A stretch of DNA of 64,000 nt. It comes from Candidatus Tayloriibacteriota bacterium (GTDB lineage: Bacteria > Patescibacteriota > Minisyncoccia > Phycocordibacterales > UBA6065). Below the pieces are notes generated by a model. The model had not been told where the DNA came from. It was given only the letters and a program-made list of their open reading frames with translations, and made no database searches. The stretch lies in NCBI GenBank assembly GCA_016215405.1, contig JACRJQ010000005.1, positions 11,560 to 75,559 on the forward strand. The letters run 5' to 3'. Shown in pieces: positions 5,934 through 61,376 of this stretch; within the stretch, counting starts at the first letter, position 1, and each line of letters opens with the position of its first letter. Both the position numbers and the translations under genes were made by a program.

Positions 5934-5960
5934 GCGGATATCCGTCCGATCGGTTTTAGA

Positions 5961-6000
5961 CCATGCAAAAACACTGGCTTAAGGCCAGTGTTTTTGCATG
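5961..6000. terminator. Long perfect hairpin (17-18 bp stem) CCATGCAAAAACACTGGC-TTAAG-GCCAGTGTTTTTGCATGG
   Basis: Seen directly; lies between the convergent glutaredoxin gene (+) and tRNA-Arg (-), abutting the tRNA 3' CCA. Confidence 0.6.
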
Positions 6001-6075
6001 GTGCCCTCAGAAGGAATCGAACCTACATCTCATCCTTAGGACGGATTTGCTCTATCCATTGAGCTATGAGGGCGC
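5999..6075 (-). tRNA. tRNA-Arg (anticodon CCU, tentative) with encoded CCA
   Basis: Minus-strand cloverleaf GCCCTCA..D-arm GCTC/GAGC..anticodon arm AATCC-GTCCTAA-GGATG..T-loop TTCGATT..TGAGGGC-A-CCA; one stem mismatch, so anticodon assignment is moderate. Confidence 0.55.
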
Positions 6076-8824: not shown

Positions 8825-9793
8825 ATGAAGAAAATCCTCGTTACCAGAGAGATACACGCGCTCGGCATCGATATGCTCAAGGCGAAGGGCTACGAGGTGG
8901 ACGTAGCGTCGGGGGATAGGCCTAAGACCCAAAAGGAGCTCATAAGGCTCGTAAAGAAGAAGCCCTATGACGCGGTCGTGACGATCCTCACCGACCGCAT
9001 CGACAAGGCCGTGTTCGATGCCGCGCCTCAGGCGAAGATCTTCGCGAATTATGCGGTCGGATACGATAACGTCGATATAGCCGAAGCTAAGAGGAGGGGC
9101 ATCGTCGTCACGAATACGCCCGGGGATTACTCCGGATGCGTCGCCGAGCACGCGATCGCGCTCATGCTCGCCCTGACGACGAGACTCGTCGAGGCGGACG
9201 CGTTCACGCGGAAGGGGAGATTCAAGGGATTCGCCCCCTTGGCGTTCCTCGGCACCGACCTTCGCGGCAAGACTTTGGGTCTTGTCGGCGCGGGCAGGAT
9301 AGGGGAGCTTCTGGCGAGGTTCGCTTCGAGGGGGCTCGACATGAAGGTCCTCTACAGCGACGTCGTAAGGAACGCGAAGATAGAGTCGGAATACGGAGCG
9401 GTCAAGGCGAGCCTCGACGAGGTGCTCCGCGCTTCGGACGTGGTGAGCCTTCATGTGCCGCTTCTACCTGCGACGGAGCACCTTATCGACGCCTCGAAGC
9501 TCTCTCTCATGAAGAAGACGGCGTACCTCATAAACACCGCGCGGGGCAAGGTCGTCGACGAGAACGCGCTCGTGAGGGCCCTAAAAGCCGGCCAGATCGC
9601 CGGAGCCGGGCTCGACGTGTTCGAGTTCGAGCCGAAGCTCGCGGCAGGTCTTTCGAAGCTCAGGAACGTGGTGCTCACTCCGCATATCGCCTCTTCCCGA
9701 GAGAGCGCGCGCTCGGAGATGGCGAGGATCGTCGCCTCGAACGTGATCGACTTTCTGGAAGGAGGGCAGCCGCTTAACATCGTTAATCCTTAA
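8825..9793 (+). CDS. D-isomer-specific 2-hydroxyacid dehydrogenase (glyoxylate/hydroxypyruvate reductase-like)
   Basis: NAD-binding GLVGAGRIG, catalytic region NTARG...D...HIASS; 322 aa. Confidence 0.85.
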   Translation: MKKILVTREIHALGIDMLKAKGYEVDVASGDRPKTQKELIRLVKKKPYDAVVTILTDRIDKAVFDAAPQAKIFANYAVGYDNVDIAEAKRRGIVVTNTPGDYSGCVAEHAIALMLALTTRLVEADAFTRKGRFKGFAPLAFLGTDLRGKTLGLVGAGRIGELLARFASRGLDMKVLYSDVVRNAKIESEYGAVKASLDEVLRASDVVSLHVPLLPATEHLIDASKLSLMKKTAYLINTARGKVVDENALVRALKAGQIAGAGLDVFEFEPKLAAGLSKLRNVVLTPHIASSRESARSEMARIVASNVIDFLEGGQPLNIVNP

Positions 9794-9797
9794 CCCT

Positions 9798-10439
9798 ATG
9801 GAACCGCTCCCTGGAAAGCTCATACTCGTCCGCCATCACGAATCGGAATGGAATAAGGCGGGCCTGTGGACGGGCGTGCGCGACAGGCACCTGACCGACT
9901 ACGGCTTTCAAAAATCGGCAGATATGGGTTTCCTTTTGAGGGACGTAAAGATCGGAAAGGCCTTCTCTTCCATGCAGGTCAGGGCTATAGAGACCCTGTC
10001 GTCCATGCTCGAGGCAATGGGGCAGTATAGGGTCGATATAGAGCATTCGAAGACCTTAAACGAGCGCGATTACGGCGAATATACGGGCAAGAGCAAATGG
10101 GACATGCAGAAGCTCGTGGGCGAGGAGACATGGAACAAGATACGCCGCGAATGGGACTATCCTGTGCCCGGAGGCGAGACGCTCAAGATGGTCTATGAGC
10201 GCGCCGTCCCGTTCTATCTCGAGAAGATATTGCCCGACGTGCGCCTCGGGACGAACGTGCTCGTGGTCGCTCACGGCAATTCGTGCCGCGCGCTCATAAA
10301 ATACATCGAGAGCGTCTCGGACGAGGGCGTATCGAAGGTCGAGATGCCCTTCGGCGGCATCCTCATCTACTCTCTAAACGAGAAGGGCCGCATGGTATCG
10401 AAGTCAGAGAGGCTCATAGAATCCCACGTAAACGCATGA
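9798..10439 (+). CDS. gpmA: 2,3-bisphosphoglycerate-dependent phosphoglycerate mutase
   Basis: Histidine phosphatase motif LVRHHESEWN, second His in VAHGNS; 213 aa. Confidence 0.85.
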   Translation: MEPLPGKLILVRHHESEWNKAGLWTGVRDRHLTDYGFQKSADMGFLLRDVKIGKAFSSMQVRAIETLSSMLEAMGQYRVDIEHSKTLNERDYGEYTGKSKWDMQKLVGEETWNKIRREWDYPVPGGETLKMVYERAVPFYLEKILPDVRLGTNVLVVAHGNSCRALIKYIESVSDEGVSKVEMPFGGILIYSLNEKGRMVSKSERLIESHVNA

Positions 10440-11273: not shown

Positions 11274-11795
11274 TTAGTATTCTATGCCTCGTACGGCCTT
11301 GCCTCCTTTGGCGAAGGGATGCTTCACCTCTCTCATATAGGTGACGAGATCGGCTTTCTCTACGAGCTCCTCAGGGCAGTCCCTGCCCGTCACTATTACG
11401 TGCTCTACGTAAGGGGCGATGTCGTCGATGAGCTTCATAGCGGCTTCGAAGCCTATGAGGTCGAGCTTCATGGCGTTGAGAAGCTCGTCAAGGACGATCA
11501 TGTGCCAATTCCCAGATCGCGCTTCGGAGCGCGCGTATTCCATGCCTTCCGCCGCCGCCTCGGCATGATCTTCGCGCGTCAGGGTGTCTCCCTGTATGCC
11601 CACGAATCCCTTGCCGACCTTCCGTATCTTGAAATATGGCGAAAGCCTGTCGCAGGCGACGTCTTCTCCCGATATCCACGGTCCCTTTATGAATTTGACC
11701 ATGAGGGTCTTCTTTCCCACGCCGGCCATCCTCATGCTCTGTCCGACCGCCGCCGATGTCTTGCCCTTGCCGTTGCCCGTGAATACGATAAGCAT
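11274..11795 (-). CDS. Cob(I)yrinic acid a,c-diamide / cob(I)alamin adenosyltransferase (CobA/CobO/BtuR family)
   Basis: P-loop-like VFTGNGKGKTSAAVG plus the rest of the CobA fold; 173 aa; adjacent to nrdJ. Confidence 0.85.
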   Translation of the reverse strand: MLIVFTGNGKGKTSAAVGQSMRMAGVGKKTLMVKFIKGPWISGEDVACDRLSPYFKIRKVGKGFVGIQGDTLTREDHAEAAAEGMEYARSEARSGNWHMIVLDELLNAMKLDLIGFEAAMKLIDDIAPYVEHVIVTGRDCPEELVEKADLVTYMREVKHPFAKGGKAVRGIEY

Positions 11796-14903: not shown

Positions 14904-15410
14904 ATGAAAAACAATTCGCGCATAGCTCTAAGCATCGCCTTCGCGCTTATCCTGTTCTCGACAGGAGCGGTCTTTTCGCGCCGCCCGCTCGTCGCCGAAG
15001 CGCCCGAGGCGCCGTCCTCCTCAATCCAGGCGAGGGAGGTCGTAGCGCCGTCTCCTCGCGAGGAGGCCCCTCTTCTGAAAAAGGCAGGGACTAGGACAGC
15101 GGAGGACGTCGCGCATGGAGAGGCTATGAGCGTATCGGTTTCGATAGGAGGCGAGGCTCGAGAAGCTCTGGTGCCGATCGGCGCCACCGCGTACGACGCC
15201 ATGGCGCTCCTCAGAAAGCAGGGAAAGGCGGAATACGAGTCGACATACTATCCGTCCCTCGGCCACTTCATAAAGGAGATCGCGGGGAAGGAGAACGAAG
15301 GAGGGTATTATTGGACGCTCTATATCAACGGAGAGTATTCGGAGAGAGGAGCTTCGTCCGCCGTCCTTACCGACGGCGATAAGGTCGAATGGAGATATGA
15401 GAATAAATAA
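14904..15410 (+). CDS. DUF4430-domain secreted protein (predicted cobalamin-binding, transcobalamin beta-domain-like)
   Basis: Signal/TM anchor then DUF4430 signature YYWTLYINGEYSERGASSAVLTDGDKVEWRY. Confidence 0.65.
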   Translation: MKNNSRIALSIAFALILFSTGAVFSRRPLVAEAPEAPSSSIQAREVVAPSPREEAPLLKKAGTRTAEDVAHGEAMSVSVSIGGEAREALVPIGATAYDAMALLRKQGKAEYESTYYPSLGHFIKEIAGKENEGGYYWTLYINGEYSERGASSAVLTDGDKVEWRYENK

Positions 15411-17352
15411 TCGAATGAAAGCATCTAGGGGGGTAGAGACCGCAGCTGTCGCCTTTTTCGCCGTCGCATCGTCCTTTTTCGTGGGAACGCCTTTCGCCGA
15501 GGCTCAATCGACGAGCACGCCGTCAGCGACTATAAGGCTCTCCATCGAAACGGCCACCACGACCCTTTTCGACGCCGAAATCGAGGTCCTGGCGTGTCCG
15601 GAGTCCGCATCGAGCACTCCGTTTTTGACCGGATACTGCGCCGTAGAGTCTTCGGGGCTCGATACGACGTGGTCGCCCTGGGGAGATATGCTCTTCCTCG
15701 ACGGCATCGCGGGATCGAACAACGATTTTTCGGCGGGGCTGTCTTGGAACTGGTTCTCTGACCTCGAATACGGCCAGACTTCTCTCGATGAGCATATCCT
15801 CGTAGAGGGGGAGAGCCTCCTTGTCGCCATAGGAAGGATGCCGCTTAAGATGTCTTTCGCGACCACGACCCCGGAAGTGGGCGCTACAACGACCGTCTCC
15901 GTATTCGAATTCGGCTTCGACGCGGGATGGAATCCGGCATGGCTCCCTTCGTCTACTACGACGGTGCTCTTTGCGGGCACGCCTCTCATCACCGACGCGA
16001 ACGGGCACGCCGATATCGTCGCGACGTCGACCGACAGCATCGCCGTCATCGCCGAGAAGGGCGGATTCATATCGGCGAGGGCGTCGCTTGCCCCCCGCGC
16101 CGCCGCGGTCCCTGCCCAAGAAAGCGAGCCTCAAGAGCCGCAGTCGAATTCGCAAAACCAGGAAAGCTCGGTGGTCGTATCTTTCCATCGCGCGATCGAC
16201 GCGGCGAAGGCGATATCGTTCCTCGCCGCGAATCAGAGGGAAGACGGCTCGTTCGGTTCCGACCTCTATACCGACTGGGCGGCGATCGCCCTGGCGACCG
16301 CCCCATACTCTGAGGCGCGCGATAAAGCGTCTAGGTATCTCTCTTCTTCCGCGCTCGCGAGCGGGTCGGCGACCGATTACGAGCGCAGGGCGATGGCTCT
16401 TATGGCGCTTAACATCGACCCGAGGACGGGTACGTCGGTCGATCACATAGCGAAGATCGTAGGATTCTTCGACGGAGAGCAGATAGGCGACAAATCTCTC
16501 GTTAACGACGACATCTTCGCGATATTTCCGCTCGCGAAGGCGGGATTTCTCGCGTCTGACGAAATACTAAAGAAGACCGTATCGTTCATCCTCTCGAAAC
16601 AGCGGGAAGGAGGGTCGTGGGAGGGGAGCGCCGACCTTACCGCCGCCGCGATCCAGGCGCTCTCATTGACGCCTTCTCTAGAGGGCGTAGGAGGGGCGCT
16701 CTCGTCCGCCAGAGGGTATCTCATGTCGCTTCCGAGATCCGAAGGAGGCTTTGGGAATTCCTACACGACGAGCTGGGCGCTCCAGGCGATAGCCGCTCTC
16801 GGAGAGAGCCCTTCCGCTTGGATGCACGAGTCCCTCGATCCGAACGACTATCTCTATGGCCTGCAGAAGGGCGATGGCGGGATAGGAGACGTCTCGCTCG
16901 GACAAAGCTCGAGAGTCTGGGCGACCTCTTATGCCGTACCGGCGTCATTAGGTAGGACGTGGGGGAGCATCCTTTCTTCGTATTCGAAGCCCCCGGGAGA
17001 GGAAGCGAGAGCGCCGCAGGCCCTCGTCGCGGCGCGGGAGCCTGAAGAGTCTAGCAGCGCCGCTACCACGACGTTGCCCGTCATTTCGCCCGTCCCTGTT
17101 CCGTTGCCTGAGCCTTTGGCCTTGATAGATGAGCCTGCGGCGTACAGCGAGACGCAGGAGGACCTTTCGGGGCCTACGCCCACGGTAGAGCCGGATATTT
17201 CGTCGAGGGAGCCGGCGAAGGAAGGGGAGTCTCTCGCCGCAGCTTTTGCGGCGGGCGGCAAGGAAGAGGCCAAGACGAGAGAGCTGGTCTTCATGCTCGC
17301 TCTGTTTCCTGTGGGAGGCTTCGCGGCTCTTTGGATTATAAAATCGCTATAA
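15397..17352 (+). CDS. Large surface protein: N-terminal DUF4430-like domain + prenyltransferase/squalene-cyclase-like alpha/alpha-toroid repeats + C-terminal TM anchor (transcobalamin-like architecture)
   Basis: Signal peptide; WNWFSDLEYGQTSLDEHILVEGESL (DUF4430-like); repeats DGSFG, EGGSWEG, EGGFGNS, DGGIGD typical of prenyltransferase alpha-toroid; Pro/Glu-rich linker; C-terminal LALFPVGGFAALWIIKSL anchor; 14-nt overlap with upstream gene. Confidence 0.6.
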   Translation: MRINNRMKASRGVETAAVAFFAVASSFFVGTPFAEAQSTSTPSATIRLSIETATTTLFDAEIEVLACPESASSTPFLTGYCAVESSGLDTTWSPWGDMLFLDGIAGSNNDFSAGLSWNWFSDLEYGQTSLDEHILVEGESLLVAIGRMPLKMSFATTTPEVGATTTVSVFEFGFDAGWNPAWLPSSTTTVLFAGTPLITDANGHADIVATSTDSIAVIAEKGGFISARASLAPRAAAVPAQESEPQEPQSNSQNQESSVVVSFHRAIDAAKAISFLAANQREDGSFGSDLYTDWAAIALATAPYSEARDKASRYLSSSALASGSATDYERRAMALMALNIDPRTGTSVDHIAKIVGFFDGEQIGDKSLVNDDIFAIFPLAKAGFLASDEILKKTVSFILSKQREGGSWEGSADLTAAAIQALSLTPSLEGVGGALSSARGYLMSLPRSEGGFGNSYTTSWALQAIAALGESPSAWMHESLDPNDYLYGLQKGDGGIGDVSLGQSSRVWATSYAVPASLGRTWGSILSSYSKPPGEEARAPQALVAAREPEESSSAATTTLPVISPVPVPLPEPLALIDEPAAYSETQEDLSGPTPTVEPDISSREPAKEGESLAAAFAAGGKEEAKTRELVFMLALFPVGGFAALWIIKSL

Positions 17353-17940: not shown

Positions 17941-18237
17941 ATGACTCCTGAAGAACATCGGATGCTCGTAGAAGCGCGCGATCTGGCCTTAGAGAACGCA
18001 AAATTGCTCAAGAGCCTACGCCGGTCGCATCGAGCAGGGACGATACTTCGAGTCATATATTGGGTTGCCATCCTCGGCGTGTCTTTCGGCGCATACTATC
18101 TGATACAGCCTTACGTAGATATGCTAAAGGGGTCCTTCGGCAATATAGGCGGCATAGGCAGCGTATCTCCGAAGGCTATGACGTTCGAGGGCGCGCTGGA
18201 GAACATAAAGGCCATAAAGGATATATATTCTCAATAG
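17941..18237 (+). CDS. Hypothetical small membrane protein
   Basis: 98 aa, one TM (VIYWVAILGVSFGAYYLI); TATACT-N6-ATG leaderless-type start. Confidence 0.45.
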   Translation: MTPEEHRMLVEARDLALENAKLLKSLRRSHRAGTILRVIYWVAILGVSFGAYYLIQPYVDMLKGSFGNIGGIGSVSPKAMTFEGALENIKAIKDIYSQ

Positions 18238-18244
18238 GCAGATC

Positions 18245-18317
18245 GCTTGGATAGCTCAGTTGGTAGAGCACTTCCCTGAAGAGGAAGGGGTCCCCAGTTC
18301 GAACCTGGGTCCAAGCA
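18245..18317 (+). tRNA. tRNA-Phe (GAA)
   Basis: GCTTGGATAGCTCAGTTGGTAGAGC..anticodon loop CTGAAGA..T-arm CCCAGTTCGAACCTGGG..TCCAAGC-A; no CCA encoded. Confidence 0.9.
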
Positions 18318-18490
18318 CAAAGAAAAAAGCGCCTCAGGGCGTCTTTTTCTTTGTGCTGGGAGGAAGCGCGGGGCGCTTCCTCCCAGGTTCGAAGCCCGAT
18401 TGAGCATCTTTTCGAGCCGTACTCGGCGAAGGAAAAATCCAATCGCGGGTACTGACCCCGTGGGGGTCGAGTCCTGGGTCCAAGCACAAC
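18318..18490 (+). repeat. tRNA-trailing element (Phe copy): terminator + GC hairpin + conserved core + 17-nt direct repeat of tRNA-Phe 3' end
   Basis: CCTGGGTCCAAGCACAA at 18304-18320 repeated at 18474-18490; core GGTTCGAAGCCCGATTGAGCATCTTTTCGAGC...GGGTACTGACC homologous to cores after tRNA-Glu and tRNA-Ser. Confidence 0.75.
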
Positions 18491-18548
18491 ACGAAAAACC
18501 CTCTTTGAGGCGATTCTCACGCAGGCTCAGTTCTCGTATAATGCTCTC

Positions 18549-19205
18549 ATGTTCATAGAGAGAAATATCTGCAATCCAGAGGCTAAATCCGGCTGGATAG
18601 AGGTCATCGCGGGCTGCATGTTCTCCGGCAAGACCGAGGAGCTCATCAGGCGCCTTAAGAGGAGCTCGATAGCGAAGCAGAAGGTGGCGATATTCAAGCC
18701 CAAGATCGATACGAGGTATCATCCCGAATTCGTCGTCTCTCACGACGCTAACAAGATCCATTCCATACCCGTCAAATCGTCCGCGGAGATACTCTCGCTA
18801 TCGGGCGAGTGCGACGTGGTCGGGATAGACGAAGCGCAGTTCTTCGATATGGGCATAGTCGACGTCGCGAACGACCTCGCGAACGCGGGGAAGAGGGTCA
18901 TCGTGGCGGGGCTCGATATGGATTACACCGGGAAGCCGTTCGGCCCTATGCCGTATCTCCTCGCTGTCGCCGAATTCGTCACGAAGGTGAACGCTATCTG
19001 CGCGAAGACGGGCGAGATCGGCTCCTATACCTACAGGCTCGAGGGCCACAGCGACGCTCAGGTCCTCGTCGGCGAGAAGGAGGCCTACGAGGCGCGCGGC
19101 AGGAGGGCGTTCTTCGACGGTATGAAAGAGCGCGGGGTTTACAGGCATGCGTCCTCTTCGAAGGCGAAGCCGAAGAAGCGAGCTAAAAAGGCCGCGATCA
19201 AATAG
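18549..19205 (+). CDS. tdk: Thymidine kinase
   Basis: P-loop [21 protein letters not shown]; Lys-rich C-terminal tail; TATAAT 8 nt upstream of ATG. Confidence 0.9.
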
Positions 19206-24264: not shown

Positions 24265-24329
24265 GGAGTAGTTCTAACATAAAGGCAATAGTTGGTCACG
24301 GATCTGGGGGCCTTTCCCTGGGGGCAGGG

Positions 24330-24485
24330 AGTTTTTTATGGATGGTCACGGGTCTCTTTGTGGTCAAAAGTCTTTTCTCGCCGTCGCTCGAAAAGCTTTC
24401 GACCCTGGCTCGCGGCCTCGCGAAGCGTTCGGCACCGCTCCGCCTCGCACAAGCTAAAATCCTGCCACAGGCAGGATTTTAGCTT
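24330..24485. repeat. Repeat-rich spacer: ~40-nt imperfect direct repeat (also at 24561-24600) plus 17-bp perfect hairpin CAAGCTAAAATCCTGCC-ACAG-GGCAGGATTTTAGCTTG
   Basis: Seen directly; CCTCGCGGCC(T/G)CGCGAA(G/A)CGTTCGGCA(C/T)CGCTCC occurs twice; hairpin at 24448-24486 abuts a tRNA-Val 3'-end fragment. Confidence 0.6.
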
Positions 24486-24663
24486 GTGCGCGGTATAGGA
24501 ATCTTTCCCTCGACTCGGATTCGCTCGTCAGCGAATCCGGTCTGGTCACCGCCTCGCGGCCGCGCGAAACGTTCGGCATCGCTCCGGCGTTCAAGTCCTA
24601 TACGCATATCTTCAAGACATGCTACCGCGCACGTAAAAACCGGCAGTCGCCGGTTTCTTTCTG
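24486..24663 (-). repeat. tRNA-trailing element (Val copy) bounded by duplicated tRNA-Val 3' end
   Basis: TGTGCGCGGTATAGGA (plus-strand view) at 24486-24501 and again at 24663-24678 (the real tRNA end); contains terminator AAACCGGCGACTGCCGGTTTTT and an inverted T-arm fragment GTTCAAGTCCTATAC. Confidence 0.7.
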
Positions 24664-24736
24664 TGCGCGGTATAGGACTTGAACCTATGACCCTCTCAAC
24701 GTCAATGAGATGCTCTACCAACTGAGCTAACCGCGC
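24664..24736 (-). tRNA. tRNA-Val (GAC)
   Basis: GCGCGGTTAGCTCAGTTGGTAGAGC..anticodon loop TTGACGT..T-arm ATAGGTTCAAGTCCTAT..ACCGCGC-A. Confidence 0.9.
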
Positions 24737-24778
24737 TTATGTAGAGACTACTCTACACGAAAAGACGTTTTTTTCAAG

Positions 24779-25132
24779 CTACTTTTTAGGCAGCGGAGGC
24801 GCCGGCGGGGGAGCGTCCTTGGGCTTGTCGAGCACCGTCGAGAGCCTCTTGATGACGAAGTAGACGACCGCGGCGAGGATGAAGAAATTGATGAGGAGCG
24901 AGAGCGTCTTGCCGTAGGCGATAGTCGAGCCGTTTATGGTGACGCCGAGATTCGCGAGGTCGGTAAACCGCGCGAACGCGAGGCCGATGATGGGGTTTAT
25001 CACGTCGTTCACGAACGAGCCGACGAGATCGGAGGTGGCCTTGCCGAGGATGAATCCCGTCGCGAAGCCTACGACTCCCTGTGTCCTTATAAAATGTATG
25101 AATCCGGCAAGCTGTTCTTTGAGCATGTACAT
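24779..25132 (-). CDS. mscL: Large-conductance mechanosensitive channel MscL
   Basis: FIRTQGVVGFATGFILGKA...VINPIIG TM1 signature, 117 aa with Pro-rich C-terminus. Confidence 0.85.
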   Translation of the reverse strand: MYMLKEQLAGFIHFIRTQGVVGFATGFILGKATSDLVGSFVNDVINPIIGLAFARFTDLANLGVTINGSTIAYGKTLSLLINFFILAAVVYFVIKRLSTVLDKPKDAPPPAPPLPKK

Positions 25133-25184
25133 ATATTACTACGGATCATCGCCTATATGGGAAACATGTGATTCGGTTCGGGCG

Positions 25185-25341
25185 GGGAGATTCGACCTCT
25201 ACTCGGTCAGTACCCGTTTCCCATTTTCTCGGATGGAAGTCCTCGAAAATACGGGAGAACGGCTTCGAATCTCCCACGCCGTGCCGCTGGCACGGCTCCT
25301 CTCCGCAAAATCAAAACGCGCCGATAGCGCGTTGGATTTTG
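25185..25341 (-). repeat. tRNA-trailing element (Ser copy) with degenerate tRNA-like fragments
   Basis: Minus-sense: terminator AACGCGC-TATCG-GCGCGTT+T-run, hairpin GGAGCCGTGCCAGCGGCACGGC, core GATTCGAAGCCGTTCTCCCGTATTTTCGAGG...GGGTACTGACC, then partial copy (TCGAATCTCCCC) of tRNA-Ser T-loop/3' stem. Confidence 0.65.
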
Positions 25342-25428
25342 CGGAGAGGGGGAGATTCGAACTCCCGAGGAGCTTGCGCCCCTGCCGGTTTTCGAAACCG
25401 GTGCATTCGACCACTCTGCCACCTCTCC
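25342..25428 (-). tRNA. tRNA-Ser (CGA), type II with long variable arm
   Basis: GGAGAGGTGGCAGAGTGGTCGAATGCACCGGTTTCGAAAACCGG..variable arm..GGGAGTTCGAATCTCCC..CCTCTCC-G. Confidence 0.85.
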
Positions 25429-25506
25429 GTGGGAATCTCAAATGCCCGAATATCCTATCACTTTTTGCCAAAATGGCAAAAAAAAGCTATATTTTGGCGG
25501 TTCGCC

Positions 25507-25578
25507 GGCCCTATCGTCTAATGGTTAGGACAGGAGCTTTTCAAGCTCTAAATCGGGGTTCGATTCCCCGTAGGGTCA
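25507..25578 (+). tRNA. tRNA-Glu (UUC)
   Basis: GGCCCTATCGTCTAATGGTTAGGAC..anticodon loop TTTTCAA..CGGGGTTCGATTCCCCG..TAGGGTC-A. Confidence 0.9.
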
Positions 25579-25750
25579 CAACGCGGCCGCCGAGAGGCGG
25601 CTTTTGCGTTGTGACCCTAAGTAGCGCCGGGGCGCGCTACGTCGGGGAATCGAAGCCTGTTTGAGCAAACTTTCGAGCTTTCTCAAGCGATGAAAGTTTC
25701 CAAACAGGGTACTGGTCATGTAAGGACCGATATTCCCCGTAGGGTCACAC
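25579..25750 (+). repeat. tRNA-trailing element (Glu copy) ending in 17-nt direct repeat of tRNA-Glu 3' end
   Basis: TTCCCCGTAGGGTCACA at 25564-25580 and 25733-25749; terminator GGCCGCC-GAGA-GGCGGC-TTTT, hairpin TAGCGCCGGGGCGCGCTA, core GAATCGAAGCCTGTTTGAGCAAACTTTCGAGC...GGGTACTGG homologous to Phe/Ser copies. Confidence 0.75.
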
Positions 25751-25784
25751 CAGGTGTTTTTTCGCTTCTCCAGAATCCTCCCAC

Positions 25785-25816
25785 AAAAAACCGCCCTCTT
25801 TTTCGGAGGGCGGTTC
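25785..25816. terminator. Bidirectional terminator AAAAAACCGCCCTC-TTTTTCGG-AGGGCGGTT
   Basis: GC hairpin flanked by A-run and T-run; downstream of minus-strand gene 25830-26603. Confidence 0.7.
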
Positions 25817-60622: not shown

Positions 60623-60721
60623 GAGTGGTGGCGTGGTGGGTTGATGTGCGAGAGTCGGGAAGAACCGGCTCCGTTTTGGAAAATATCATTTTTGAGCGAG
60701 TTCGTCAATATGTGGCGGGAC

Positions 60722-60926
60722 GGAGCTCCCGCCCAAAACGAAAACAGCTCGTCGCTGTTTTGTTTGTGGGCGAGGGGGGGACTTGAATCTTACAGATTCG
60801 GTACAGGTTTTCTGTTTCCTCGGTTGGAAACCCTCGTAAACATAGAAAACCTTTTCGCGTCCCCCATGCAGAGCCACAGGCTCTGCTCTCGCCCAAAACG
60901 AAAACAGCTCATCGCTGTTTTGTTTG
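60722..60926 (-). repeat. tRNA-trailing element (Leu-UAG copy) incl. ~55-nt direct repeat of tRNA-Leu 3' end plus its terminator
   Basis: CGCCCAAAACGAAAACAGCTC(G/A)TCGCTGTTTTGTTTGTGGGCGAGGGGGG at 60722-60777 and 60889-60940 (167-bp period); hairpins AACAGC-GATGA-GCTGTT and GCAGAGCC-TGT-GGCTCTGC. Confidence 0.75.
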
Positions 60927-61007
60927 TGGGCGAGGGGGGACTTGAACCCCCATGCCTTGCGGCGCTAGCTCCTAAGGCTAGTGTGTCTGCCATTTCACCA
61001 CCCGCCC
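60927..61007 (-). tRNA. tRNA-Leu (UAG), type II
   Basis: GGGCGGGTGGTGAAATGGCAGACAC..anticodon arm CTAGC-CTTAGGA-GCTAG..variable arm..GGGGGTTCAAGTCCCCC..CTCGCCC-A. Confidence 0.85.
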
Positions 61008-61094
61008 GACGTAGAGAGCTTAGCATAAACTACGGCGGAGGGAATCTCGGCGTACAGCCGAAGCCTGATCGGCGCGAGCGCGCAGCTCGATTGA

Positions 61095-61303
61095 ATCTCG
61101 ATCCCTACACATACGTCCAGCGGACATGCGCGTAGGGATATCTCTCTCGATTTAAATTTTCTCGTCAGAAAATTTAGTCTGGGTACCGCCTCGCTCCCGC
61201 CGGAGACCGGCAGGCCCCGTTTCGGCGTTCGATCCCTACACGCAAGCCTAACAGGCTTGCTAGGGCGGGCACGAAAAAACGGCCGGAGCCGTTTTTTCTC
61301 GTG
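61095..61303 (-). repeat. tRNA-trailing element (Lys copy) with direct and inverted partial copies of tRNA-Lys T-arm/3' end
   Basis: Minus-sense: terminator AAAAAACGGCTCCGGCCGTTTTTT, hairpin GCAAGCC-TGTT-AGGCTTGC, T-arm-like GTGTAGGGATCGAACGCC, GGTACCCAGAC, hairpin AAATTTTCT-GACG-AGAAAATTT, partial copies ATCCCTAC (61127-61140, 61098-61110). Confidence 0.6.
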
Positions 61304-61376
61304 TCCGCCCTGTAGGGATCGAACCTACGACCTTATCCTTAAGAGGGATCTGCTCTACCAACTGAGCTAAGGGCGG
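61304..61376 (-). tRNA. tRNA-Lys (CUU)
   Basis: CCGCCCTTAGCTCAGTTGGTAGAGC..anticodon loop CTCTTAA..GTAGGTTCGATCCCTAC..AGGGCGG-A (C1-G72 pair). Confidence 0.8.

Follow-up and report, generated by a model that had tools for sequence, protein, structure and literature searches.

The window, a 64,000-nucleotide stretch (positions 11,560 to 75,559, forward strand) of contig JACRJQ010000005.1 in the Candidatus Tayloriibacteriota bacterium assembly GCA_016215405.1, contains ten tRNA genes (ARAGORN, Rfam), six of which are followed by a non-coding, strongly folded unit of about 140-175 bp that repeats the end of the tRNA. At the locus considered in most detail here, tRNA-Phe(GAA) and its unit are adjoined by a thymidine kinase (TK) gene, the product of which is 100% identical to a protein from a Candidatus Taylorbacteria metagenome-assembled genome (MAG). 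The 17-nt tRNA-Phe tail CCTGGGTCCAAGCACAA occurs exactly twice in the window, at 18304-18320 (tRNA-Phe end) and, 169 bp downstream, at 18473-18489, while the chance expectation for such a repeat is zero (0/100 shuffles). A tail copy was also found 160-177 nt downstream of tRNA-Val, tRNA-Glu and tRNA-Leu(UAG), and a partial one downstream of tRNA-Ser(CGA) and tRNA-Lys(CUU). An earlier note on this DNA, made from the letters alone, was thus correct about the repeated tRNA-Phe tail, and its claim of a constant recurrence at ~160-177 bp held for Val, Glu and Leu(UAG) but came down to a partial tail copy for Ser(CGA) and Lys(CUU). No downstream tail copy followed the window tRNAs Gly, Arg, Leu(UAA) and Cys.

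In all six window copies, and in copies elsewhere, the parts follow one another in the same order: the tRNA with its end x1 (positions 54-74), a trailer, a segment x'a that is the reverse complement of positions 66-74, a hairpin P2, a segment x'b that is the reverse complement of positions 54-65, a core, and x2, a direct copy of about positions 54-74 that often starts as early as T54-C56. P2 splits the inversely copied tRNA end (x', i.e., x'a and x'b) at the boundary between T-stem and acceptor stem. The trailer is palindromic and often terminator-like, and tRNA positions 66-74, trailer and x'a together form an inverted repeat with 24-nt arms. In the case of tRNA-Glu, the tRNA end reads TTCGATTCCCCG-TAGGGTCAC and the unit carries GTGACCCTA, a 23-nt hairpin and CGGGGAATCGAA. 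No open reading frame (ORF) lies inside the elements. The parts of the Phe locus are as follows.

18245-18318, + strand: tRNA-Phe(GAA), found by ARAGORN and scored at 68.9 bits as Rfam tRNA
18298-18318, + strand: x1, the last 21 nt of tRNA-Phe (T54-C74)
18319-18352, + strand: trailer palindrome with terminator-like GC hairpin and T-run
18329-18342, + strand: terminator-like hairpin and T-run
18310-18318, trailer and 18353-18361, + strand: stem P0 with 24-nt arms (inverted repeat I1, 88% complementary)
18353-18361, + strand: x'a, reverse complement of tRNA positions 66-74 with one mismatch, GTGCTGGGA
18356-18369 / 18373-18386, + strand: 14-bp GC hairpin
18362-18381, + strand: P2 hairpin
18382-18393, + strand: x'b, exact reverse complement of tRNA positions 54-65, CCCAGGTTCGAA
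18394-18470, + strand: class-A core, with long hairpin P4, conserved joiner GGGUACUG and short hairpin P5; no Rfam match
18471-18489, + strand: x2, direct copy of the tRNA 3' end, exact over 18473-18489

Both the terminator and the 14-bp GC hairpin described in the earlier note were present. The segment CCCAGGTTCGAA, taken there for a copy of the 5' half of the T-arm, proved instead to be the reverse complement of the T-loop and the 3' strand of the T-stem (positions 54-65), an orientation that is ambiguous in Phe (TTCGAA palindrome) and unambiguous in Glu, Val and Lys. The earlier note overlooked that the tRNA end is present in inverse copy as well, with a second segment (positions 66-74) on the 5' side of the GC hairpin.

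That homologous units stand after all six tRNAs was borne out by nhmmer cross-matches between their cores (E 3e-7 to 9e-13), which are beyond chance and define two classes, A (Phe, Glu, Ser and Leu(UAG)) and B (Val and Lys). A degenerate third copy lies 3' of the Val unit and another 3' of the Lys unit.

Empty sites in relatives

Relatives were obtained through TK homologues of 73-82% identity, which provided eight loci with DNA and seven TK variants. In these loci the gene order and the same tRNAs were kept and the units were absent. Thus, tRNA-Phe lacked a unit in L061, L062, L065, L067, L068, L069 and L071, and in L070, where only the 3' part of tRNA-Phe is on the contig, it runs directly into the TK start. 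The tRNA-Phe of L062 and L065 is identical to that of the window and ends 12 and 4 nt, respectively, before the TK start codon. Similarly, tRNA-Val is bare in L061, L062 and L065, where it abuts tsaD, and tRNA-Ser(CGA) and tRNA-Glu(UUC) are bare in L065. Hidden Markov models (HMMs) of class A and class B gave no match in L061-L065 or L067-L071. In two closer relatives, gap size alone was used to judge the site at tRNA-Phe as empty in P0004 (139-bp gap) and possibly filled in P0006 (329-bp gap).

A clean empty site was present in L067, the TK of which is 82% identical and which aligns with the window on both flanks of the site. There, the tRNA-Phe end (...CCAAGCAC) is followed by AACACGAAAATCGCC...TATAAT...ATG, homologous to the window sequence after x2, and the letters directly after tRNA-Phe are AACACGAAAA...TATAAT...ATG. 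The insertion boundary falls at x2, since the sequence beyond 18489 is homologous to the flank right after tRNA-Phe in L067. Given this homology of the flanks, window and L067 differ by a precise insertion/deletion of 172 bp (18319-18490) with the repeat at its bounds, and the absence of the trailer from the empty site indicates that trailer and terminator are part of the inserted unit. The presence/absence variation that the earlier note had predicted for related genomes was therefore found. By parsimony, gain of the unit in the lineage of the window is favoured.

Some details of the flanks were noted in addition. The native tRNA-Phe terminator of L067, AAAATCGCC-CTCTGT-GGCGATTTT (L067 1097-1156), is broken but recognisable behind the window x2 (18490-18548), and the TATAAT box before the thymidine kinase gene is retained in the window. 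At T-loop position 59, the window tRNA-Phe and x'b have A and the closest empty-site relatives (L067, L068 and L071) have G; the sequence just 5' of the window x2 reads TCGAG-T (18466-18472; compare 18298-18304). This pattern may be the trace expected of a crossover in the T-loop, although it concerns a single site and needs a 1-nt indel.

Distribution, tRNA matching and fold of the family

A class-A core pattern scanned over 185,579 species-representative genomes gave 59 loci, about 23 of which were confirmed as copies with the HMM. The confirmed copies came from Saccharibacteria, Paceibacterota, Kaiser-, Lloyd-, Nomura- and Taylorbacteria and two unclassified bins, so that all named genomes with true copies were Patescibacteria, and they stood directly behind an ARAGORN-detected tRNA except for four, located at the edge of a contig or after a tRNA-like 3' end that ARAGORN had missed. 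About 35 of the 59 loci, from other phyla (Bryobacterales, Brevibacillus and others), were dismissed as chance matches with neither tRNA nor HMM match, as was the one match of the pattern in a scan of viral contigs, which lay inside a coding region. Metagenomes provided 46 further true loci. Pooled, the class-A copies numbered 81, of which 60 were beside a detected tRNA, and they covered 26 anticodon classes. No Rfam family besides tRNAs and noise was matched, either at the gathering score over the whole window or at E <= 10 over two sub-regions, and full-text literature on Patescibacteria or Saccharibacteria yielded no description of such elements. The element family is new and polymorphic among Patescibacteria. 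The nearest paper found concerns group I introns of Patescibacteria tRNAs (PMC13011429), which are located in the anticodon loop, unlike these units. Where found, this structured family is abundant (six of ten window tRNAs), and this in a phylum of otherwise tightly packed genomes; in the annotation of genomes from the candidate phyla radiation (CPR), its units produce false partial-tRNA, attachment-site and prophage-boundary signals.

The arms of the units follow the tRNA beside which they stand. Among the 60 copies with a detected tRNA, x'b was a perfect complement of the adjoining tRNA in 46 and x'a in 17, while x2 (positions 61-74) was perfect in 22 and its T-stem half in 44. The match of x' to the tRNA was better than its match to x2. 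At 12 of 12 G.U positions in correctly registered tRNA stems, x' was the Watson-Crick complement of the 3' strand and never a copy of the 5' strand, which indicates that x' is not a duplicated tRNA 5' half. Encoded CCA was absent from the tRNA genes preceding 19 of 20 copies checked by eye. The six element-bearing tRNAs of the window have N73-C-A-(A/G/C) in place of CCA. The sole window tRNA with encoded CCA, tRNA-Arg(CCU) (5955-6073, - strand), has no element; the palindrome of its bidirectional terminator is perfect over ~20 bp, and the stem extends into the ACCA end (ACCATGCAAAAACACTGGCC / GGCCAGTGTTTTTGCATGGT).

The sense strand is predicted to fold into P1 (x'a with x2), P2, P3 (x'b with x2) and a junction bearing P4 and P5, with folding z-scores of -3.5 to -7.5 for the window units. 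This five-helix model was examined on a 26-sequence alignment (A2) with 500 shuffles and slid partners as controls. The observed proportion of paired cells was 81%, compared with 62% for shuffles and 35-51% for slid partners; cells changed on both sides numbered 168, compared with 68 and 49-82, respectively; and the covariation score was 0.51, compared with 0.19 and 0.12-0.18. None of the 500 shuffles reached the observed values. Independently, RNAalifold indicated compensatory changes at 13 of 17 pairs. Of the 26 aligned copies, 25 had P2 as a stem of 8-9 bp (for L031 the script returned no fold), with a free sequence (32% mean identity). P3, which pairs x'b with the T-stem part of x2, was retained even in copies with a decayed P1. 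The tRNA-sense strand was more stable than its complement in 24 of 26 copies, with a mean difference of -5.3 kcal/mol (p = 1.4e-5), and G.U pairs exceeded A.C pairs (72 vs 29, or 47 vs 29 when one invariant pair was left out, p = 0.05). Thus, one strand of the unit folds, a property compatible with RNA and DNA alike.

In the core there are conserved unpaired nucleotides and, by eye, loops of GNRA-like appearance and what seem to be tandem G.A pairs, the last of these also in P4 of the Phe unit. The loop of P5 in class A (e.g., window 25719-25725) is usually CUGUAAG, which can be taken for a GUAA tetraloop closed by U.G or for a 7-nt loop with the shape of a tRNA-Tyr anticodon loop (anticodon GUA). 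The loop of P2 is frequently UGGGA, and close to the base of the stem a G is bulged. A variant in L126, L143, L185 and L032 has an additional covarying mini-hairpin, UAAGCGUACUCGCGG / UAAGGGUACUCCCGG, between P5 and x2. ARAGORN detects no upstream tRNA in L126, L143 and L185, and a conserved 28-nt block, GGTTCCAACATCGTCCCAGACGGCCAAC, is common to L126 and L143 upstream.

Modules of the units appear to be exchangeable. On one Lloydbacteria contig, the cores of a Ser unit (L007) and a Gln unit (L031) were 97% identical, and in one MAG those of a Gln unit (L006) and an Arg unit (L042) were 94% identical, while the arms and P2 differed within each pair. The Glu unit of the window was closest (85%) to a Glu unit from Saccharibacteria. 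Tandem arrays of unlike units were found in L011, in L153 and at the Val and Lys loci of the window. Truncated copies were common, and L096 contained exact tandem duplicates of a 142-bp unit without P2 and x'a. At the latter locus (Ga0209864_1000001, 1,031,779 bp; reverse strand 9397-9800), the two identical units follow a tRNA-Leu(UAA) with encoded CCA, and x2 is a 23-nt copy of positions 54-76. In L113 (~1-170, - strand of the locus), a tRNA-Cys copy is cut exactly after T54 and fused with a long hairpin and a class-A-like core that is divergent, with a second tRNA-Cys 5' part downstream.

A terminator-like hairpin lay between the tRNA and x'a in 35 of the 60 copies and was lacking there in the other 25, of which 13 had one after x2; in all, a terminator followed x2 in 31 of 60. 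The trailer motif RCGAAGYRA took the place of the terminator-like hairpin in 11 of 60. This motif (e.g., AGCGAAGCGA) caps the trailer hairpin and was seen in the trailers of L008, L037, L041, L048, L051 and L022, and also near the 3' end of the RtT repeat units of Escherichia coli (L072). GCGAAGC is the sequence of a very stable DNA mini-hairpin. No promoter-like site was seen before the elements of the window.

The other units of the window, with the partial copies behind them, are listed below, followed by the window ORFs without a Pfam family at E <= 1e-5.

25580-25749, + strand: class-A unit of tRNA-Glu(UUC) (tRNA 25507-25579), with trailer 25580-25610, x'a 25611-25619, P2 25620-25642, x'b 25643-25654, core 25655-25731 and x2 25732-25749
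25176-25340, - strand: class-A unit of tRNA-Ser(CGA) (tRNA 25341-25428), with the acceptor half of x2 decayed
60766-60925, - strand: divergent class-A unit of tRNA-Leu(UAG) (tRNA 60926-61007)
60714-60765, - strand: trailer repeat and truncated x'a after the Leu(UAG) unit
24485-24662, - strand: class-B unit of tRNA-Val(GAC) (tRNA 24663-24736)
~24377-24484, - strand: second palindromic terminator and armless degenerate core after the Val unit
61132-61302, - strand: class-B unit of tRNA-Lys(CUU) (tRNA 61303-61376), with x2 truncated at position 65
61008-61131, - strand: partial unit with a third kind of core after the Lys unit
15397-17352, + strand: ORF of 651 aa
42623-44023, + strand: ORF of 466 aa
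52237-53538, - strand: ORF of 433 aa
44974-45927, - strand: ORF of 317 aa

Behind the Leu(UAG) unit, its own trailer and terminator occur again with two substitutions, followed by the truncated x'a TGGGCGGGAG. Behind the Val unit, a perfect palindromic terminator (AAGCTAAAATCCTGCC...GGCAGGATTTTAGCTT) that differs from the unit's own is followed by GTGCG, and the degenerate core is a mix of class-B-like GCGGAGCGGTGCCGAACGCTTCGCG and class-A-like CTTTTCGAGCGACGGCGAGAAAAG without arms. In the Lys unit, x2 ends exactly at position 65 (ATCCCTAC) and is followed by a hairpin, an x'b-like GTAGGGATCGAG and the third kind of core (61008-61139, - strand); the breakpoint 65/66 coincides with the place where x' is interrupted by P2.

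Readings of the unit

The unit is tentatively read as a small non-coding, non-autonomous, site-specific insertion element for tRNA 3' ends in Patescibacteria, one that probably acts as a folded single strand. This reading is favoured because the unit is a precise indel at the repeat, is distributed sporadically in several copies per genome, occurs in heterogeneous arrays and in decayed forms, has near-identical cores at new tRNAs and brings its own terminator. It also draws support from the 26 anticodon classes behind which copies stand, from arms that follow the adjoining tRNA, from an x' that is no copy of the tRNA 5' half, and from the covarying fold with its sense-strand bias. In the mechanism envisaged, the element would pass through a transient form, either a folded single strand or a small circle, in which x would pair with x' and so imitate the duplex of the tRNA gene 3' end. 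Drawn as a circle, it would consist of the conserved core and one long imperfect hairpin (x and trailer paired with trailer' and x'), from which P2 would extend as a side branch. Recombination anywhere within the ~21-bp identity (Campbell-type, like attP x attB) would then insert the unit and yield an intact tRNA, the element, a second copy of the tRNA tail and the native flank. Since the second tail copy would be a fresh target, tandem and mixed arrays would be explained as well. The role of the core would lie in recruiting or placing a trans-acting enzyme, and the arms would have to be re-matched to each new tRNA. More speculatively, the inner ends of the arms, which form the near-universal palindromic T-loop box TTCGAA, may let core cassettes swap between arm sets. 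If the unit is mobile, the fact that its target-matching arms differ from site to site implies a nucleic-acid-guided or template-copying step.

Several observations weigh against this reading. Precise deletion between the repeats would leave the same empty site, the polarity of the event being a matter of parsimony, and gene conversion confined to the core could account for cores that are 94-97% identical. The window copies are old and diverged (26-44 bits between them), which indicates that there was no recent burst in the window. The 40 largest window ORFs, which are housekeeping genes by Pfam, included no integrase or other recombinase, no transposase and no reverse transcriptase (the rest of the genome was not searched), and no gene recurred beside the element in 23 CPR loci beyond local synteny. 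Neither an autonomous nor a split copy was detected in a search for orphan 5' or 3' core halves, nor was a viral copy of the class-A element found in the scan of viral contigs. In addition, no model is at hand for the rewriting of x'a, x'b and x2 for a new tRNA when P2 lies between the inverse segments, a circle of ~170 nt is an unusual recombination partner, and the conserved unpaired nucleotides, GNRA-like loops and apparent tandem G.A pairs are equally typical of a functional RNA.

The last point leads to a reading that is less probable than insertion but a serious possibility, namely that the unit is a trailer RNA with a host function, comparable to RtT of E. coli, which is co-transcribed with the tRNA or read through from it and excised by tRNA-processing enzymes. 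Its paired ends (x':x2) would imitate the acceptor/T-arm helix of the adjoining tRNA, the product would be a stable RNA of ~140-170 nt active in tRNA metabolism or stress signalling, and duplication and spread would result incidentally from recombination at repeated tRNA tails. The 178-bp repeats of E. coli tyrT/tyrV share this logic and yield the annotated small RNA (sRNA) RttR. Consistent with an RNA product, the CPR helices covary strongly, the single-stranded joiners are conserved, the sense strand folds better than its complement and P3 is kept even where P1 has decayed. In addition, 25 of the 60 copies have no terminator-like hairpin ahead of them, and 13 of these have one after x2, as would be expected of a single transcription unit. 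Against this reading, the other 35 stand behind such a hairpin and no promoter-like site precedes the elements. Other features fit it poorly as well. The unit is absent from orthologous tRNAs of several relatives and from nearly all species representatives of Patescibacteria, and is thus dispensable, and truncated and degenerate copies are common. Pairing alone would require neither an exact complement of the tRNA in x' nor Watson-Crick partners at the G.U positions of the tRNA, and the T-loop of the element is paired or replaced by a junction, which would make it a poor mimic of the tRNA elbow. If the unit is nonetheless a processed RNA, it would represent a new class of tRNA-linked RNA. The earlier note had offered as alternatives a miniature tRNA-targeting element and a family of tRNA-trailer RNAs, and these are exactly the two readings that survive.

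An unlikely variant combines mobility with guidance: x'a-P2-x'b would be a guide to the tRNA-gene 3' end, the core a ribozyme or recombinase scaffold, and the arms would be rewritten at each insertion. A programmable, tRNA-tail-specific insertion of this kind would be without known counterpart and could also explain the 45-year-old RtT repeats of E. coli. Somewhat more doubtful is a further reading, in which a self-processing or guide RNA uses its core as a ribozyme or protein scaffold and x'a/x'b as a bipartite guide to positions 54-74 of the tRNA or of its gene, either for cutting the trailer from CCA-less pre-tRNAs or for directing a nuclease or recombinase to the tRNA gene, with x2 as a decoy or substrate strand. 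It would account for 21 nt of contiguous antisense that a hairpin always interrupts at one position and that match the tRNA better than x2, and agrees with the size and complexity of the unit, which are like those of small ribozymes or guide scaffolds, and with the lack of encoded CCA before 19 of 20 copies. Such a guide, however, would require unfolding of the tRNA in order to pair, often has a terminator ahead of it, and is incomplete in the L096 variant, from which P2 and x'a are missing; no ribozyme or guide family was matched in Rfam even at E <= 10, and no protein gene was associated with the unit, either among the 40 largest window ORFs or among neighbours in the 23 loci.

The units could also be taken for remnants of larger phages or plasmids, i.e., attL and attR left after an internal deletion, like the cis-mobilizable elements (CIMEs) of integrative conjugative elements. 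A direct repeat of the tRNA 3' part flanking an insert, and relatives with empty sites, are what such remnants would show. This origin is nevertheless very improbable in view of the uniform size and architecture of 81 copies behind 26 anticodon classes, hairpins that covary, the strand bias, the lack of ORF fragments, of viral copies and of an integrase among the 40 largest window ORFs, and the inversely copied tRNA end, a feature foreign to att remnants and unnecessary for an ordinary attP. The view of the earlier note that the units are not decayed prophages is supported by the same uniformity, the covarying helices and the lack of an ORF. Its attribution of the duplicated tRNA 3' half to attB/attP recombination by a tyrosine integrase, on the other hand, names one possible cause only; neither the 40 largest ORFs nor a recurrent neighbour in the 23 loci supplied an integrase. 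Finally, that the units are ordinary conserved terminator or spacer sequence with chance repeats is refuted, despite the terminator-like hairpins, by the zero chance expectation of the exact 17-mer repeat, by homology across loci, which reaches E = 1e-13, in a core that the earlier note had already called conserved, by the uniform covarying architecture and the inversely copied tRNA end, by members of the same family in other classes of the phylum and by absence from orthologous loci.

A number of narrower readings were tried and rejected. Origin as a pseudo-tRNA by tandem duplication is contradicted by x' being the 3'-strand complement at the 12 G.U positions and by an inverse copy that covers the T-loop and positions 73-74. 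The segment x2 is not an antisense tRNA but a sense copy, since it includes positions 73-74 and keeps U71 of a G.U pair. As a primer-binding site x' was discarded, its complement tracking the genomic CAA/CAG and not CCA. An intron in the T-loop was likewise rejected; the spliced product would be no different from the tRNA, which is intact already. The class-B sequence CUGACGAG, considered as a hammerhead, is a hairpin loop and not a junction, and none of Intron_gpI, hammerhead, twister, pistol, hatchet or HDV-like families was listed in Rfam at E <= 10.

Comparison with known systems

The units resemble tRNA-targeting integrative elements in that an intact tRNA is followed by a partial 3' copy downstream, relatives have empty sites, and the block of identity runs from the T-loop to the tRNA 3' end. 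Sublocation classes of tyrosine-integrase sites in the tRNA T-loop and 3' end were reportedly distinguished by Williams in 2002. In contrast with integrative elements, the CPR units are of ~170 bp, have no integrase or ORF, carry an inverse copy of the site and a covarying single-strand structure, and use one core family for many tRNAs.

Folded single-strand recombination sites, among them integron attC and CTX-phi attP(+), consist of imperfect inverted repeats that on one strand form a duplex resembling the partner site. In the CPR units, too, one strand is predicted to fold, with a strand bias and with P2 as an extra-helical feature, and structure is conserved above sequence; an imitation of the partner site and an insertion that regenerates the site and so gives rise to arrays would be further points in common. 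The CPR units differ in that no conserved R and L boxes, IntI or dedicated Xer site were identified, the duplex sequence varies with the tRNA and the central domain is conserved instead of variable; the single-stranded intermediate, moreover, is in this case a matter of inference. Like miniature inverted-repeat transposable elements (MITEs) and the palindrome-associated transposable elements (PATEs) derived from IS200/IS605, the units are small, non-coding and structured, occur several per genome and are polymorphic among relatives. Unlike them, they have terminal inverted repeats that are locus-specific (i.e., tRNA-derived), a duplication of 14-23 bp and hairpin sequences that differ among copies in one genome, and no parent insertion sequence was found.

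The closest known analogue of the CPR units is the unexplained RtT repeat behind tRNA-Tyr of E. coli (RF00391, rttR). The tyrT-tyrV region contains four units of the 178-bp type, annotated as sRNA RttR and Rfam RtT, with model scores of 133-138 bits. RtT units likewise follow immediately on a same-strand tRNA, recurring every ~170-180 bp, and each ends with the last 19 nt of the tRNA, just as CPR units end in a copy of the tRNA tail. Their multi-hairpin core is closed, in a manner analogous to x', by a 5' segment, GGGGAAGGAU, with the reverse-complement sequence of tRNA-Tyr positions 59-68. Both kinds of unit occur as tandem copies and share a GCGAAGCG-type motif, and the L096 variant is the minimal form of the CPR unit, closest in layout to RtT. 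With matches admitted up to E <= 10, the RtT model recognised neither the Val, Ser and Glu units (24300-25800) nor the Phe unit (18200-18560), and no similarity in sequence to RtT was detectable. RtT is not known outside enterobacteria. It is tied to tRNA-Tyr, both here and in the Rfam consensus, whereas the CPR family serves 26 anticodon classes, and its inverse segment is contiguous and of 10 nt, with neither P2 nor a palindromic trailer, whereas the CPR arms span positions 54-74. A preprint (10.1101/2024.07.17.603846) reports stress-dependent enrichment of the RtT region of E. coli in exonuclease-resistant DNA and describes the mode of action as unknown. The CPR family exceeds RtT in its many tRNA targets, exact inverse and direct arm copies, empty sites, which are shown here, and exchangeable modules. 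With 81 copies, 26 tRNA targets, filled and empty sites, modules that exchange and a fold supported by covariation, it constitutes a data set for the RtT puzzle.

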